The notes below the pieces were generated by a model. The model saw only the letters and a list, made by a program, of their open reading frames with translations, had not been told where the DNA came from and did no database searches. Positions 3,026 to 45,104 of a stretch of 64,000 bases of DNA are shown here, piece after piece (position 1 is the first letter of the stretch; each line of letters starts with the position of its first letter). Location: the NCBI RefSeq assembly GCF_024700885.2, contig NZ_CP117016.1; one strand, given 5' to 3'. This DNA is from Escherichia coli (GTDB taxonomy: Bacteria; Pseudomonadota; Gammaproteobacteria; Enterobacterales; Enterobacteriaceae). A program made the position numbers and the translations under genes.

Positions 3026-4105
3026 ATGCAAGCGGCAACTGTTGTGATTAACCGCCGCGCTCTGCGACACAACCTGCAACGTCTTCGTGAACTGGCACCT
3101 GCCAGTAAAATGGTTGCGGTGGTGAAAGCGAACGCTTATGGTCACGGTCTTCTTGAGACCGCGCGAACGCTCCCCGATGCTGACGCCTTTGGCGTAGCCC
3201 GTCTCGAAGAAGCTCTGCGACTGCGTGCGGGGGGAATCACCAAACCTGTACTGTTACTCGAAGGCTTTTTTGATGCCAGAGATCTGCCGACGATTTCTGC
3301 GCAACATTTTCATACCGCCGTGCATAACGAAGAACAGCTGGCTGCGCTGGAAGAGGCTAGCCTGGACGAGCCGGTTACCGTCTGGATGAAACTCGATACC
3401 GGTATGCACCGTCTGGGCGTAAGGCCGGAACAGGCTGAGGCGTTTTATCATCGCCTGACCCAGTGCAAAAACGTTCGTCAGCCGGTGAATATCGTCAGCC
3501 ATTTTGCGCGCGCGGATGAACCAAAATGCGGCGCAACCGAGAAACAACTCGCTATCTTTAATACCTTTTGCGAAGGCAAACCTGGTCAACGTTCCATTGC
3601 CGCATCGGGTGGCATTTTACTCTGGCCACAGTCGCATTTTGACTGGGTGCGCCCGGGTATTATTCTTTACGGTGTATCTCCGCTGGAAGATCGCTCCACC
3701 GGTGCCGATTTTGGCTGTCAGCCAGTGATGTCACTAACCTCCAGCCTGATTGCCGTGCGTGAGCATAAAGCCGGAGAGCCTGTTGGTTATGGTGGAACCT
3801 GGGTAAGCGAACGTGATACTCGTCTTGGCGTAGTCGCGATGGGTTATGGCGATGGTTATCCGCGCGCCGCGCCGTCCGGTACGCCAGTGCTGGTGAACGG
3901 TCGCGAAGTCCCGATTGTCGGGCGCGTGGCGATGGATATGATCTGCGTAGACTTAGGTCCACAGGCGCAGGATAAAGCCGGGGACCCGGTCATTTTGTGG
4001 GGCGAAGGTTTGCCCGTAGAACGTATCGCTGAAATGACAAAAGTGAGCGCTTACGAACTTATTACGCGCCTGACTTCAAGGGTCGCGATGAAATACGTGG
4101 ATTAA
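3026..4105 (+). CDS. alr: Alanine racemase (biosynthetic)
   Basis: 359-aa ORF with PLP-lysine motif [10 protein letters not shown]; matches Alr. Confidence 0.95.
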
Positions 4106-4162: not shown

Positions 4163-4357
4163 AATAAAATCCTACCAATTCAATAAGTTGATGTTCTTTC
4201 ATGTTCTTATAAAGGTCGTGCCTCTGGCGAATGTACGTTTGTCATGAGTCTCACTCTGTTGCTAATTACCGTTCGCTCCTGAACATCCACTCGATCTTCG
4301 CCTTCTTCCGGTTTATTGTGTCTTAACCACCTGCCCGTAAACCTGGAGAACCATCGC

Positions 4358-5551
4358 GTGTTTCAAAAAGTTGACGCCTACGCTGGCGACCCGATTCTTA
4401 CGCTTATGGAGCGTTTCAAAGAAGACCCTCGCAGCGACAAAGTGAATTTAAGTATCGGTCTGTACTACAACGAAGACGGAATTATTCCCCAACTGAAAGC
4501 CGTGGCGGAAGCGGAAGCGCGCCTGAATGCACAGCCTCATGGTGCTTCGCTTTATTTACCGATGGAAGGGCTTAATAGCTATCGCCATGCCATTGCGCCG
4601 CTGCTGTTTGGTGCGGACCATCCGGTACTGCAACAACAGCGCGTAGCAACCATTCAAACCCTTGGCGGCTCAGGGGCATTGAAAGTGGGCGCAGATTTCC
4701 TGAAACGCTACTTCCCGGAATCAGGCGTCTGGGTCAGCGATCCTACCTGGGAAAACCACGTAGCAATATTCGCCGGGGCTGGATTCGAAGTGAGTACTTA
4801 CCCCTGGTATGACGAAGCGACTAACGGCGTGCGCTTTAATGACCTGTTGGCGACGCTAAAAACATTACCTGCCCGCAGTATTGTGTTGCTGCACCCATGT
4901 TGCCACAACCCAACGGGTGCCGATCTCACTAATGACCAGTGGGATGCGGTGATTCAAATTCTCAAAGCCCGCGAGCTTATCCCATTTCTTGATATTGCCT
5001 ATCAAGGATTTGGTGCCGGTATGGAAGAGGATGCCTACGCCATTCGCGCCATTGCCAGCGCTGGATTACCCGCTCTGGTGAGCAATTCGTTCTCGAAAAT
5101 TTTCTCCCTTTACGGCGAGCGCGTCGGCGGACTTTCTGTGCTGTGTGAAGATGCCGAAGCCGCAGGCCGCGTACTGGGGCAATTGAAAGCAACAGTTCGC
5201 CGCAACTACTCCAGCCCGCCGAATTTTGGTGCGCAGGTGGTGGCTGCGGTGCTGAATGACGAGGCATTGAAAGCCAGCTGGCTGGCGGAAGTAGAAGAGA
5301 TGCGTACTCGCATTCTGGCGATGCGTCAGGAACTGGTGAAGGTATTGAGCACAGAAATGCCAGAACGCAATTTCGATTATCTGCTTAATCAGCGCGGTAT
5401 GTTCAGTTATACCGGTTTAAGTGCCGCTCAGGTTGACCAACTACGTGAAGAATTTGGTGTCTATCTCATCGCCAGCGGTCGCATGTGTGTCGCCGGGTTA
5501 AATACGGCAAATGTACAATGTGTGGCAAAGGCGTTTGCTGCGGTGATGTAA
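4358..5551 (+). CDS. tyrB: Aromatic-amino-acid aminotransferase
   Basis: ORF track starts at TTG 4316; trimmed to GTG 4358 ([16 protein letters not shown]) giving 397 aa as in TyrB. Confidence 0.93.
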
Positions 5552-5772
5552 TGCAGGAAAGCAGGCTGGAGTTACCCAGCCTGCAGTGAAATTAAACTGT
5601 TGTCGCTTTCACTCTTGCTTTATAGATGATTTTTTTGATGCCATCGTTCTACGTGAGAGGTAATAAAACGTTGTTAGTTCTAACTTGTTAAGTTTATCCC
5701 AATGTTCTGGAGTGCTTTTCCCTGTTTTACCGTGTGGAATAATAATTTTTGCACATCTAACCATTATTAAAT

Positions 5773-6294
5773 TTAATAATAAGTATCGGGTTTGTTACGA
5801 TAGAATTTTTCTATATCCTCAAGAATATGCTTTGCCTTATTGCCTGTGACTATCTGAGATTCAATTATAGTATCGTTAAATTCTAAAGTTAAAGAGAACT
5901 CTTTTTTTCCGCTTTGTGTAAGTTTAACCTTATATTGATTACCAATATCAAATAAAAAGGTCCTGTAATGAGAATAATCACCTTTAACCTCCTCGGCAAA
6001 ACAGCAAAGCGTGCAAATATACATACAATCTTTCTTACCCCTGATTTTGTTAACTAAATCAATAAATGCGTGAAAAACTGTACTTGCAATAGAACTTGAT
6101 ACTTCTTCTCCAGGTCTACAAAAATCTTTTGCAATTTTTAACTGTGTTTCTATATATAAAAAGAGATCTTTGGCATAAGAGAAATCTTTGGCATAAGAGA
6201 TATCTTTGGCATAAGAGATATCTTTGTTATTTAGTGTATCTAGCTCTACAGGTAAAGATGTCGTTTTGTTGCTATTCACATTTGATATATTCAT
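5773..6294 (-). CDS. Hypothetical protein, AT-rich orphan at the yjbS locus (173 aa) with internal 6-aa tandem repeat
   Basis: ORF track 5773..6333; start placed at Met of MNISNVNSNK because AAGGAG lies 9 nt upstream on the coding strand. Strongly AT-rich relative to neighbours. Not recognised by me; relation to K-12 yjbS unverified. Confidence 0.5.
   Translation of the reverse strand: MNISNVNSNKTTSLPVELDTLNNKDISYAKDISYAKDFSYAKDLFLYIETQLKIAKDFCRPGEEVSSSIASTVFHAFIDLVNKIRGKKDCMYICTLCCFAEEVKGDYSHYRTFLFDIGNQYKVKLTQSGKKEFSLTLEFNDTIIESQIVTGNKAKHILEDIEKFYRNKPDTYY
6166..6226. repeat. 18-bp direct tandem repeat, about 3.4 copies (atctttggcataagagaN)
   Basis: Read directly; lies in frame within the orphan ORF and encodes KDISYA-KDISYA-KDFSYA. 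Confidence 0.85.
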
Positions 6295-41357: not shown

Positions 41358-43343
41358 TTAATTTGGGGTTACGATATTCACCCACAAATCGAAATTATCC
41401 AGACAGGCGATAATTTCTTCCAGTTTCGCGCCATTGCCAATAATTTTGGCTTTCTTCGCTTTTACCAGATCCGCCATTTTGGCTTGTCCGGTCAGCACGG
41501 CATGCAGATCTTCACGGCTGATGTAGAAAGAGGCGTCGGCTTGCGGTTGCAGCGTTTTACGGTAGTTAAGCACGCTATCGTTCAGCGTCAGGTTGAGGTT
41601 ATCGCCGTTGCTCATATTGAAGTTCAGGCTGATATTTTTACCTGCGGCTTTCGCACTATCGAGGCGAACGGACATAAAGTCGAATAGCATTTCGACCGAC
41701 ATTCCGCGAATGGTGTCCGGGGAACCGGTGGTGCCGTGGCTGAATTTATGCACCCCTTCGCGCAGCTCTTTCGCGCCGGTCAGGTAGAAACCGCGCCAGG
41801 TGGCGGACTCGGCCTGATAGCCCAGCTGTTCAAAGTTATCCGCTTGCAGATTCTTCGCGACCTGGTCACCTGGGTTGGCGGCAATCACCTGTTTCAGCAG
41901 TTCTGCCGACCAGCGGTAATCACCTTGCTTGTTCGCTTCTTGCGCCAGGTTAATAACGCGGGCAGAACCGCCCAGAGCCTGCACGTAACGTTTACCCATC
42001 TCCACCTGACCATACGGATGCAGGTTAGCCGGGTTACCGTCGTAATAGCCAAGATAGAAGTTATACACCGCGCGGGCGTTGTGGCTGACAGAACCGTAAT
42101 AGCCGCGGCTGGCCCAGTTATTGGCAAGTGCAGGCGGCAGCTTAATCATGTCGCCGATTTCATTCATGGTGTAGCCCTGGTTCGCCAGGTGCAGGGTCTG
42201 GTCGTGAATGTACTTGATGGTATCGCGATATTTACCAATATAATCATTGATATGCTTATTGCCCCAGACCGGCCAGGTGTGCGGCATAAACAGTACTTCC
42301 GCGTCGTTACCCCACATATCCAGCGTTTCGTTCAGGTACTCGGTCCACTTGCTGGTGTCGCGGGTTTTCGCGCCGCGCAGAGTGTAGAAGTTGTGCAGGG
42401 TATGCGTGGCGTTCTCGGCGGTACACAGGGCTTTCAGGGCCGGAATATAGAAGTGCATTTCGGCTGGTGCTTCGCTACCTGGGGTCATCAGGAAGTCAAA
42501 CTCCAGGCCGTCGATAATCATCTTCTCGCCAGTTCTGACAATAGTTTTAGTCGGTGCAATAATGCTCGGGTCGCCGGTTGCCAGCGTCACGCCAAGGCCA
42601 TTACCCACGTTGCCTTGCGCGTTGTGCGGCAGTAACAGACCGTAAGAGTAGAGCGCACGGCGGCTCATGATGTTACCCGCCAGCACGTTTTCGCTGATGG
42701 CTTCGTCCATAAAGCCTGCCGGAGCGATCACCTGCACTTTGCCGGATTTAACATCCGTTTCAGAGATAATGCCTTTCACACCGCCATAATGGTCGGCGTG
42801 GCTGTGGGTGTAAATAACAGCAACAATCGGTTTTTGCGGACGATGCTGGAAGTAAAGGTCAAGTGCGGCTTTTGCGGCAGGCGGCGTCACCAGTGGGTCG
42901 ATAACAATAATGCCTTTCTCGCCTTCTACAAATGTAACGTTAGAGATATCCTGGCCGCGCACCTGATACATTTTATCGGTGACTTTGAACAGGCCAGAAA
43001 TGCCGTTGATCTGCGACTGACGCCACAGGCTGGGGTTTACGGTTTCCGGCGCAGCGGCATTAATATCAAATTTGTAATCATTCGCGCGGTAGTAAACTTT
43101 GCCGTTAGCATCACGCAGAATACCTTCATCCAGCAGCGGGGCGATAAATCCACGCTGGGCATCGTCAAAATCTTGACGATCGCTAAACGGTAATGATTTG
43201 GCGTAATTCTGATTAATCTGTTGGGTATATTGAGTGGCGGCTTTCGCTTCATCTGTTGCGTAAGCGGTATTTACCATCATGCCGCTGGCGGCAGTTAACG
43301 CAATAACAATCCTGCTCAAACGGAATAACCGAGAGTTATTCAT
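41358..43343 (-). CDS. yjcS: Alkyl/aryl sulfatase (metallo-beta-lactamase fold, periplasmic)
   Basis: ORF track 41358..43355; trimmed to [21 protein letters not shown] giving 661 aa; HxHxDH motif ([10 protein letters not shown]). Confidence 0.9.
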
Positions 43344-43595
43344 ATAAATCTCCATTTATCATTTGTGTCGTAAATATGTAATCCATGCAAAATACGTCAT
43401 TTAAAGCTGGCGTTATCATAATTGGGAAATTGCGACTTTAATAAGTGGAAGTGTGAGCGGAACGAGCCATTTTATTAGGCATTTGTGCTGAAGAGGGAAA
43501 AGCACGCGAATTTATTATCTCCGTAAATAATATGAGGTGTTTTATATATTTATTATATATATTGTACTTCGGCAAATACTGAGCACAATTTATCA

Positions 43596-43913
43596 ATGCA
43601 ACCGATGTTTCTTTTTAAAAAACGTACCGGAGCAATGGGCGGTCATGTCGCTGGCACCGCAGGATTCTGCGTTGCTGTGCCAGCCTTTTATTCATGGTCA
43701 ATGAGTGAGGGGATTGATAAAGAAACCAGGTCGTCAGAGCGCACTGATTATCCGCATTACGCCAGTGAAGTTGCACTGGCTTTTGGTTCACGAGTGGTTG
43801 GCCTCGAACTGGCAAAAATGATTGTGGATGCGTGGCTGGGCGCGCAGTACGAAGGCGGTCGTCATCAACAACGCGTTGAGGCGATTACGGCAATAGAGCA
43901 GCGGAAAAATTGA
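43596..43913 (+). CDS. Hypothetical 105-aa ORF at the site where the K-12 als/rpiR/rpiB island is absent
   Basis: ATG-initiated ORF with E. coli-like codon usage but no obvious Shine-Dalgarno; not recognised by me. Confidence 0.3.
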   Translation: MQPMFLFKKRTGAMGGHVAGTAGFCVAVPAFYSWSMSEGIDKETRSSERTDYPHYASEVALAFGSRVVGLELAKMIVDAWLGAQYEGGRHQQRVEAITAIEQRKN

Positions 43914-43981
43914 GATTCATCCACTACTTGAATGGATGAGTAATGACTAATGTGGATAGAGTTTCTTTTTGAGGTTGGCTA

Positions 43982-44311
43982 ATGAAACGTTTTCCGCTAT
44001 TTCTTTTATTCACCCTGCTCACGCTGTCCACCGTTCCGGCCCAGGCCGATATTATCGACGACACCATTGGCAATATTCAGCAGGCGATTAACGATGCTTA
44101 TAACCCTGACCGTGGGCGAGACTATGAAGATTCGCGCGACGACGGCTGGCAGCGTGAAGTGAACGACGATCGGCGCAGACAATATGACGATCGCCGCCGC
44201 CAGTTTGAAGATCGCCGCAGGCAGCTGGACGATCGCCAGCGCCAGCTGGATCAGGAGCGTCGGCAGCTAGAAGATGAAGAGCGGAGAATGGAAGATGAGT
44301 ATGGGCGGTGA
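43982..44311 (+). CDS. yjdP: Secreted low-complexity Asp/Arg/Gln/Glu-rich protein
   Basis: 109-aa ORF MKRFPLFLLFTLLTLSTVPAQA (signal peptide) followed by DDRRRQ(Y/F/L)(D/E)D repeats; matches YjdP. Confidence 0.8.
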   Translation: MKRFPLFLLFTLLTLSTVPAQADIIDDTIGNIQQAINDAYNPDRGRDYEDSRDDGWQREVNDDRRRQYDDRRRQFEDRRRQLDDRQRQLDQERRQLEDEERRMEDEYGR

Positions 44312-44345
44312 TGTTGAGTTTAGAGCAGGCATCGCCCCTCACCCA

Positions 44346-45104
44346 TCACTCCACCCCAATCTCCATCCCATCAAACCCCGCCTCAAACCCTGACGGCAGT
44401 GTGTTCTCCATCAGCCACGCATCAAACTGATGGCTGATATGTGTCAGAACCACGCGCGGCGAGCGGATAACTTCATTCAGCGCCAGCACGGTGTTTAAAT
44501 CACAGTGATTACGCGGTGCATCCTCGCGCGGTGGGTGGCTGCAATCAATCACCATCACCTGCGGCTGATTATTGCGTAAAAATTTCAGCGTTTTTTCCGG
44601 CAGGCCTGCGGTGTCAGACAGCCACGCCACCCGGCTATGTGCCGTTTCCAGTAGATAGCCGAAAGTGAGTTTCGAATGGTTGAGCGGCAGCGGCGTGACC
44701 TGTAATCCCTGCAAATCAAACATCACAAATGGCTCCACCGTGTGGCTGAAATCAAGCAGGCCCGGATGTTTAAACAGATCGTCGCAGCCCTGTTCATCCG
44801 GCGGGCCGTAGACCGGGATCGAATCGCCCACGCCCCAGCGCAGCGGAAACAGCCCCTGCACGTGATCCATATGGTAGTGCGTCAGCAAAAACTGCTGGAA
44901 CGATCCGGGCGACCAGCGATCGGCGAGATCGTGCAGCCCGGCGTCGATCAGGGTGATCGCGTCGTTAAACTTCACGACGCCGCTGCATGGCTGGCGGCGA
45001 TACTGCGGTGAGCGCCGCGCTCTGACGCAGGCCACGCACTCACAGCCCCATGCGGGAACGCCCTGTGCGCCGCCAGTGCCGGTGAGCGTGAGGGTCAGGC
45101 TCAT
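44346..45104 (-). CDS. phnP: Phosphoribosyl 1,2-cyclic phosphate phosphodiesterase
   Basis: 252-aa ORF with metallo-beta-lactamase HxHxDH motif ([10 protein letters not shown]). Confidence 0.93.

Follow-up and report, generated by a model that had tools for sequence, protein, structure and literature searches.

The small open reading frame (ORF) yjdP occupies positions 43982..44311 on the plus strand of a 64,000-nucleotide stretch of Escherichia coli DNA (contig NZ_CP117016.1, assembly GCF_024700885.2; the whole stretch is called the window here). The analysis of this gene and its orthologues points, tentatively, to an Rcs-induced, Sec-exported protein whose C-terminal part would form a helical rod with a leucine seam and would act by pairing. 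Within this reading, regulation and architecture stand on firmer ground than pairing and cellular role. A core gene of the E. coli 'y-ome' without an assigned function, yjdP occurs in 5,404 of the 5,426 complete E. coli genomes (>99%), and it has now become a testable case owing to three points: a selected six-heptad rod, an RcsB-type box kept in >20 genera, and an adjacency to the phn genes that is positional only.

The ORF comprises 109 codons plus a stop (ATG to TGA) and is preceded by a Shine-Dalgarno sequence, GAGG (43971..43974, plus strand), read from the sequence 8 nt before the ATG; GAG(A/G) was kept at this position in the orthologues. The translated product matched the NCBIfam equivalog model NF041443 (DDRRRQL_YjdP) with 147.4 bits against a cutoff of 90 (E 1.2e-43), and residues 1-103 covered profile positions 1-101 of 101. 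The Pfam family PF28054 (YjdP) had been assigned beforehand to each of the homologues listed, some of which are 98-100% identical to YjdP of the window; its assignment here was made by proxy through these homologues, as the Pfam version that was scanned lacks this model and returned only noise (E above 0.4). Over 1.4 kb, the surroundings of the gene were 100% identical in DNA sequence to those in E. coli strain 1190, where it is annotated as yjdP and the gene order is yjcS, a 105-aa 'RpiB family' coding sequence (CDS), yjdP, and then the convergent phnP-phnO-phnN onward. The name yjdP used in an earlier prediction made from the window sequence alone (the original prediction) is therefore correct given the two family matches, and the strain 1190 annotation agrees with it. 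The gene is real, conserved, and already catalogued; it is correctly called and named, and its annotation needs no change. A literature search on yjdP (b4487) found no functional paper, consistent with the earlier statement that its function was undescribed, and the family proved to be named but uncharacterized, so that homology to a characterized, structured family, which would have refuted the original prediction, did not emerge. Some source labels on YjdP homologues read 'predicted RNase H-like nuclease (RuvC/YqgF family)' or 'Skp family chaperone for outer membrane proteins'; both resemble COG assignments drawn from charged coiled-coil-like repeats, and they should not be carried over. Weak matches of YjdP to FlbB and RNase Y were likewise rejected as low-complexity artefacts.

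The C-terminal part of YjdP is built of six heptads (aa 62-103; 44165..44290, plus strand), which read DDRRRQY, DDRRRQF, EDRRRQL, DDRQRQL, DQERRQL, and EDEERRM and follow the pattern [DE][DE]R[RQ]RQ[YFLM]. Residue identity at a lag of seven was 0.48, compared with 0.05-0.25 at the other lags below 14. At the DNA level, a 21-bp tandem array begins at the first heptad codon (44165..44250, 4.1 copies, 78% matches). The original prediction had described a nine-residue 'DDRRRQxxD' pattern, for which the heptad has to be substituted, and a mature protein made almost entirely of Asp, Arg, Gln, and Glu. The latter description holds for the repeat-rich C-terminal part, in which these four residues make up 81% of the last 52 residues, but not for the 87-aa mature protein as a whole (67%), whose first 18 residues are hydrophobic and amphipathic.

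A position profile of the heptads was compiled from 59 distinct tracts, with position d assigned to the seventh (Leu) residue. The seventh residue was Y, L/F, L, L, L, and L/M in heptads 1-6; it was always Y, L, F, M, or I and never polar in any of the 59 tracts. Position a was R/S, R/Y, R, Q, R, and E in the same order, and heptad 4, D[DE]RQRQL, carried an invariant Gln at a (59/59). Among the other positions, e and f were acidic, b was Arg, c was Gln, and g was Arg in heptads 1-4. On a helical wheel, this arrangement gives a leucine seam one residue wide with Arg on both sides (positions g and a). The order of the charges was also far from random: opposite-charge pairs at i+3/i+4 numbered 36 against 22.8 ± 3.5 in shuffled sequences (reached by 2 of 5000; z about +3.7), whereas like-charge pairs numbered 4 against 21.9 ± 3.5 (0 of 5000; z about -5). 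Net charge ran from about +1 per heptad in heptads 1-3 through 0 in heptads 4-5 to -1.7 in heptad 6, with -6.3 in the N-terminal part, and this gradient was conserved over 74 orthologues; the protein carries -8 overall. Only five of the 79 extracted orthologues departed from a count of six heptads; the variants found within Escherichia, which differ by whole heptads, are described below.

In a pairwise codon comparison of 78 distinct orthologues, synonymous sites were saturated (pS 0.65-0.86) and pN was 0.17 for the heptads. Entropy at the three codon positions of the heptads was 0.52, 0.31, and 1.44 bits. The entropy pattern and the excess of pS over pN establish the reading frame and a constraint at the amino acid level, and both the heptads and the N-terminal helix described below are under purifying selection.

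The AlphaFold model, calculated from a 16-sequence alignment, showed a single helix over aa 52-108 with pLDDT values of 91-96 over the heptads. In a tethered tandem model, both rods remained helical (pLDDT 78-90), and the pTM rose from 0.35 to 0.45. The conserved charge gradient along the rod favors antiparallel or head-to-tail contacts. A sequence search of the PDB with E up to 1 gave no match to YjdP, and Foldseek gave none against the PDB for either the monomer or the tandem model.

The first 22 residues (MKRFPLFLLFTLLTLSTVPAQA; 43982..44047, plus strand) have the n-, h-, and c-region features of a signal peptide. The n-region contains K2 and R3, the 12-residue hydrophobic core F4-L15 has a mean Kyte-Doolittle value of 2.35, and a predicted signal peptidase I cleavage motif, A20-Q21-A22, precedes D23. 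In the orthologues, A-x-A before D/N was kept while the rest of the signal peptide sequence diverged (pN 0.32). YjdP has no Cys anywhere and therefore no lipobox. By a rule-based check combined with this conservation, YjdP has the features of Sec-dependent, signal peptidase I-cleaved export, so that the signal peptide named in the original prediction was recovered and export of the protein via Sec is predicted. The literature search found no proteomic or fusion evidence for YjdP export.

The predicted mature protein begins with an amphipathic helix (aa 23-40, DIIDDTIGNIQQAINDAY; 44048..44101, plus strand), in which hydrophobic residues are spaced 4-3-4-3. Its hydrophobic moment was 0.52 compared with 0.20 ± 0.10 in shuffles (19 of 5000), its sequence was near-invariant across genera (pN 0.16), and AlphaFold modeled aa 18-40 as helical with modest confidence for the N-terminal helix. 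A linker of variable length follows (aa 41-61; 44102..44164, plus strand); it is acidic, is the most variable part of the protein in both length and sequence (pN 0.38), and had a pLDDT of about 53. Behind the rod, the protein ends in an acidic tail, EDEYGR (aa 104-109; 44291..44308, plus strand), with a conserved [DE][DE][DE]Y.R ending and a mean net charge of -2.6 among the orthologues.

Upstream of yjdP, an element resembling an RcsB box (TGAGATTCATCCAC; 43911..43924, plus strand) was found within an extended conserved motif (TTGAGATTCATCCACTAC; 43910-43927, plus strand). The consensus of the RcsB homodimer box is TN(G/A)GAN4TC(T/C)NA (PMC7913699), and the yjdP element, TGAGA-TTCA-TCCAC, whose core is TGAGA-N4-TCC, agreed with it at seven of the eight specified positions. 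The RcsAB box TaAGaa|tatTCctA (PMC3950696) is similar as well. Across the orthologues, the element takes the near-invariant form TGAGATTC(C/A)TCC(G/A)C about 72 nt from the ATG. Each of the 79 distinct upstream regions, which come from >20 genera, had the sequence (A/T)TTGAGATTCCTCCGCTAC, and 75 of these regions placed it 71-75 nt before the ATG; the strict RcsB consensus was matched in only one of the 79. Information content was 1.0-2.0 bits per position inside the box compared with about 0.1 bit in the flank just upstream. The first three bases of the element in the window form the stop codon of an upstream rpiB remnant, and the box persisted though the upstream gene differed among genomes (rpiB, a sodium-solute symporter-family (SSF) transporter gene, or a nitroreductase gene). 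Counted over both strands of the window (128 kb), a relaxed pattern of the box had 10 occurrences.

A second conserved block lies at box positions +37 to +42 and provides a candidate -10 hexamer, TAATGT (43948..43953, plus strand). This block reads TA(A/C)CGT in most other genera, with T37, A38, and T42 kept in 72 of 78-79 sequences. As the block is 30.5 nt from the center of the box, the box would be centered at about -42.5, next to a poor -35, and transcription would start near 43960. From the sequence, the arrangement of the box, poor -35, and -10 would be of the activator-dependent promoter type, and a generic sigma-70 promoter scan gave no consensus site for yjdP, as expected for such a promoter. 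Reading TTGAGA as a plain -35 hexamer was rejected, since no conserved -10 was found 16-18 nt downstream. The osmC-proximal RcsB site shares the geometry of the yjdP box; bdm was not used as a geometry control, as the box on its side (TAAGATTAGTCCTG) lies at a different distance from a guessed -10.

Published expression data are consistent with this promoter prediction. In an RNA-seq study of strain BW25113, two doses of a LolCDE inhibitor raised yjdP RNA 9.5- and 10.6-fold, and the list of genes in which it appeared consists mostly of Rcs targets (wca, osmB, bdm, rcsA, ivy, mliC, and yjbEFGH) (PMC5105897). BW25113 has an identical box and the six-heptad yjdP allele. The gene is thus expressed and regulated at the RNA level, and the 'envelope-stress factor' proposed in the original prediction fits both this induction and the conserved RcsB-like box. 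Another study recorded a 3.5-fold repression of yjdP upon induction of CsiR, together with a ChIP peak of the genic type (PMC5217608). The supplements searched for PMC8822343, PMC13098195, and PMC7888660 did not list yjdP and so gave no independent evidence of Rcs dependence.

Taken together, the following course of events is proposed. Upon envelope damage, phosphorylated RcsB would bind the conserved box abutting the -35 (center at about -42.5) and thereby activate transcription of yjdP from a promoter that combines a TAAYGT -10 with a weak -35. The YjdP precursor would be exported by Sec and cut after AQA to yield a mature protein of 87 aa, consisting of an 18-residue amphipathic helix, a flexible and variable acidic linker, and the six-heptad rod. 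The six heptads may fold into one alpha-helix of about 6-8.5 nm, held by Asp/Glu-Arg salt bridges at i+3/i+4, and the rod may pair through its Arg-flanked leucine seam, either with a second copy (antiparallel or head-to-tail) or with another envelope component. The N-terminal helix could serve as a second contact surface. YjdP would then act in the stressed periplasm as a chaperone-like factor with a structural or adaptor role. If the link to Rcs is true, YjdP would add a further conserved output to the main response of the enterobacteria to envelope damage, and would be an unusual case of an Arg-flanked heptad rod with a single leucine seam outside the cytoplasm.

Several points weigh against this proposal. 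On the regulatory side, the box departs from the RcsB consensus at its last position (C for A), and a different or additional factor could bind, because the conserved block exceeds 14 nt. The response to the LolCDE inhibitor also includes Cpx and sigma-S genes (PMC5105897), so that the induction of yjdP could use another regulator. A direct test of RcsB dependence for yjdP, or of RcsB~P binding to its box, was not found in the searched literature, and the transcription start given above is a position deduced from the promoter blocks. With regard to the rod, position a is polar, which makes a poor classical coiled-coil core, and its length is not strictly fixed, as YjdP proteins of 95, 102, 109, and 123 aa occur in Escherichia through insertion or deletion of whole heptads, which slippage in the 21-bp array would be expected to produce. 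In the rod, Asp outnumbers Glu by 9 to 5 and forms helices less readily than Glu, so that a free YjdP monomer may be only partly helical. AlphaFold routinely renders charged repeats as confident helices. In the tandem model, the confidence of the N-terminal helix was very low (about 32), and the artificial linker itself favors the antiparallel hairpin of that model.

Two other readings of the heptad tract were considered. The charge pattern could describe a monomeric charged single alpha-helix (SAH), a stiff salt-bridged spacer that never pairs and acts as a ruler or tether between a target of the N-terminal helix and the acidic tail. The extreme excess of opposite-charge i+3/i+4 pairs with almost no like-charge pairs, the one straight helix of the AlphaFold monomer, the six-heptad length kept across genera, and the polar position a all suit such a spacer. 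However, the seventh residue was hydrophobic in every heptad of the 59 tracts, Asp exceeds Glu whereas known SAH domains are Glu-rich, and the rods lost only slight confidence when two of them were packed together; we therefore regard a spacer that never pairs as rather unlikely. The original prediction had instead suggested an intrinsically disordered polyampholyte. The second half of this term was confirmed, since the protein is highly charged and well mixed (charged fraction 0.55-0.65, kappa about 0.08, mean hydropathy -2.3), and a disordered periplasmic chain could act through bulk properties such as cation buffering, hydrophilin-like hydration or osmoprotection, or Asr-like anti-aggregation. 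The variable, low-confidence linker and the Asp-rich rod are compatible with disorder, as are the co-induction of yjdP with osmB, osmY, osmC, otsAB, and yjbJ and the absence of a similar solved structure in the sequence and Foldseek searches. Nevertheless, proteins that work by bulk properties tolerate shuffling and changes in length, whereas the heptad identities and the Leu register of YjdP were kept over >20 genera and the order of its charges is tuned to helical spacing beyond mere good mixing. The fixed heptads, their position-specific conservation with a low pN, the hydrophobic seventh residue, and the AlphaFold helix did not bear out the first half of the term: only the linker (aa 41-61) looks disordered, the heptads most likely form a structured helical rod and not a disordered chain, and action through bulk properties is in our view also rather unlikely. 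Binding of nucleic acids in the periplasm, another of the functions suggested earlier, is unlikely for YjdP.

The helical rod that pairs through its leucine seam, which we prefer, also admits a more specific form, to which we give somewhat less weight than to either of these two: YjdP would be an unlisted direct target of RcsB whose rods assemble in the periplasm, as antiparallel dimers or head to tail, and bind a charged ligand. It might sequester cationic antimicrobial peptides or lysozyme, in parallel to the Rcs-controlled Ivy and MliC, or it might bridge anionic envelope polymers; if so, it would represent a new structural class of envelope-defense protein. A role outside the envelope response, as an accessory factor of phosphonate catabolism or as a gene regulated by convergent phn transcription, was suggested by the position of phnP, which was the convergent downstream gene at 71 of the 83 loci, even where protein identity was 47%, and whose stop codon often overlapped that of yjdP by 4 nt, while the upstream neighbor varied. 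In the window, moreover, no terminator-like site was found between yjdP and phnP; such sites lay only inside the rpiB remnant or inside yjdP on the opposite strand. Against it, yjdP and its box were kept where the phnC-P operon had been deleted entirely (our loci L004, L013, and L061) or partly (L023 and L027), unrelated genes stood between yjdP and phnP in Citrobacter and Kosakonia, and the conserved cis-element resembles an RcsB box, with no Pho-box-like sequence seen by eye (no formal scan was made). A functional link to phosphonate catabolism was rejected because yjdP and its box survive these deletions and insertions, and a role tied to phn now appears very improbable. Co-transcription of the two genes is excluded by their convergent orientation, and their adjacency is positional only. 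Hardly any weight was given to the last alternative, a spurious ORF in which a 21-bp DNA repeat is open by chance. Long mechanical ORFs do traverse the yjdP repeats on the opposite strand (44088..44342, 84 aa, and 44006-44182, 58 aa), but entropy was concentrated at the third codon position, pN fell well short of pS, 78 orthologues kept the signal peptide, the start codon, and the Shine-Dalgarno sequence, and yjdP RNA was detected and regulated. The selection pattern already refutes this alternative; the antisense ORFs arise as a by-product of the repeated GC-rich CGN/GAY codons, and nothing suggests that they are coding.

The comparison with known systems places YjdP near several families without assigning it to any of them. 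Ivy, MliC, OsmB, YpeC, and YmgD, among other small exported proteins, and the small protein Bdm are strongly co-induced with yjdP when LolCDE inhibition activates Rcs, and the RcsB-type box of yjdP adjoins its promoter, from which RcsB dependence is predicted. These small Rcs-induced proteins have no sequence relationship to YjdP, which is a charged heptad rod without Cys; the globular lysozyme inhibitors Ivy and MliC and the lipoprotein OsmB are of other kinds. Spy, CpxP, ZraP, and Asr are also small, signal-peptide-bearing, and envelope-stress-induced, and spy and cpxP were co-induced with yjdP. Spy and CpxP are helical, and Asr is a low-complexity, disordered acid-shock protein. Unlike CpxP, Spy, and ZraP, YjdP contains no LTXXQ and had no Pfam or NCBIfam match to their families even at E up to 1; unlike Asr, which is basic, rich in Lys, Ala, and His, and devoid of heptads, it is acidic overall. 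Lpp, a small envelope protein of the abundant type that amounts to a single helical heptad rod about 8 nm long in the periplasm, resembles the predicted 57-residue helix of YjdP (about 8.5 nm), likewise a single heptad rod. However, Lpp has a lipobox Cys, a hydrophobic a/d core that forms a trimer, and a C-terminal Lys linked to peptidoglycan, whereas YjdP has no Cys, a polar position a, a C-terminal Arg, and no match to the family.

Among helical rods in general, the ER/K or charged single alpha-helix (CSAH) domains of myosin VI/X and caldesmon share with YjdP the dense alternating charges, the i to i+4 spacing, and a long, straight predicted helix. Known ER/K domains are Glu-rich and have no conserved hydrophobic seam. 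YjdP shows the charge-pair pattern of a CSAH but, in 59 of 59 tracts, has a hydrophobic residue at every seventh position; Arg is the sole basic residue of its rod, and it is predicted to be exported to the periplasm. bZIP leucine zippers resemble YjdP in having Leu at each seventh position over six heptads, with acidic e and basic g in heptads 1-4. In contrast to a bZIP, YjdP has Arg, Gln, or Glu at a, lacks a basic DNA-binding region and a Pfam match, and has a charge gradient that favors antiparallel rather than parallel pairing. The rod thus shows the heptad periodicity with hydrophobic d of a coiled coil without its hydrophobic a. Likewise, it has the composition of a disordered polyampholyte, yet each heptad position is conserved and the tract is predicted to be helical, so that only the linker suits that class.

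The family has a narrow distribution. An exhaustive profile-free search of 1.84 billion representative proteins returned only 51 representatives with E up to 1e-3, and many of these were fragments. When one genome was scanned for each species, 109 relatives were obtained, of which 80 were kept; all belong to the Enterobacteriaceae and represent >20 genera, including Escherichia, Citrobacter, Enterobacter, Klebsiella (K. oxytoca and K. grimontii), Raoultella, Kosakonia, Kluyvera, Buttiauxella, Leclercia, Atlantibacter, Trabulsiella, Cedecea, and others. Salmonella was not represented among the 80.

The 5' leader of yjdP was also inspected for structure. In the predicted leader (about 43955-43995), a stem around the Shine-Dalgarno sequence was seen in many genera (loci L007, L029, L031, L044, L045, L052, L059, and others, in whose coordinates the ATG lies at 4001), with apparent compensatory changes among its pairs: AAAGCCAG/CUGGCUUU, AGGGCCAG/CUGGCCCU, GGUCA/UGACC, GCCUC/GAGGC, and UCUCAC/GUGAGA. 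In the leaders of Escherichia and Citrobacter, the 5' end instead pairs with codons 3-6 (GGAUAG/CUAUCC). RNAalifold on a MAFFT alignment of the leader gave no consensus structure, single-sequence z-scores were weak (-0.2 to -1.8), and an Rfam scan of 43300-44500 found nothing.

Downstream, phnP (44346..45104, minus strand) is the convergent neighbor and serves here as context only; the gap between the two genes is 34 nt in the window (44312-44345). In K-12 and BW25113, this gap contains a 112-bp insert with GGGGAGAGGG/CCCCTC-type repeats, matching the listing of yjdP>>><<<phnP with a G-quadruplex-hairpin (HPGQ) element (PMC5100583). Independent deletions of the whole phnC-P operon were seen in E. 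whittamii, E. coli SCPM-O-B-8794, and Phytobacter (locus positions about 4330-6000), and in the deleted genomes yjdP stands beside yjdN(phnB)-yjdM(phnA)-yjdA. Escherichia sp. E1V33 has kept phnO and lost phnP. Between yjdP and phnP, one Citrobacter locus (L012) has an ORF for a 95-aa protein that by eye resembles a RelE/ParE toxin (4327-4614, minus strand), one Kosakonia locus (L009) has an ORF for a 114-aa protein that by eye resembles a low-molecular-weight phosphatase (4306-4650, minus strand), and the locus from GCA_001654925.1 (L001) has a 203-aa ORF without a Pfam match (4582-5193, plus strand).

Upstream, the ORF at 43596-43913 is homologous to rpiB only from about 43776 onward, its last ~42 codons corresponding to Pfam positions 102-138 of 138. 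Because only these ~42 terminal codons match RpiB, the als operon and most of rpiB are taken to be deleted between yjcS and yjdP in this strain. RefSeq calls this remnant an intact 105-aa 'RpiB/LacA/LacB family' CDS, and the configuration is common to about 1,575 of 5,409 E. coli genomes. At the same yjcS-yjdP site, K-12 has the full als-rpiB region and enterohemorrhagic E. coli (EHEC) has the island OI167 (PMC10128022).

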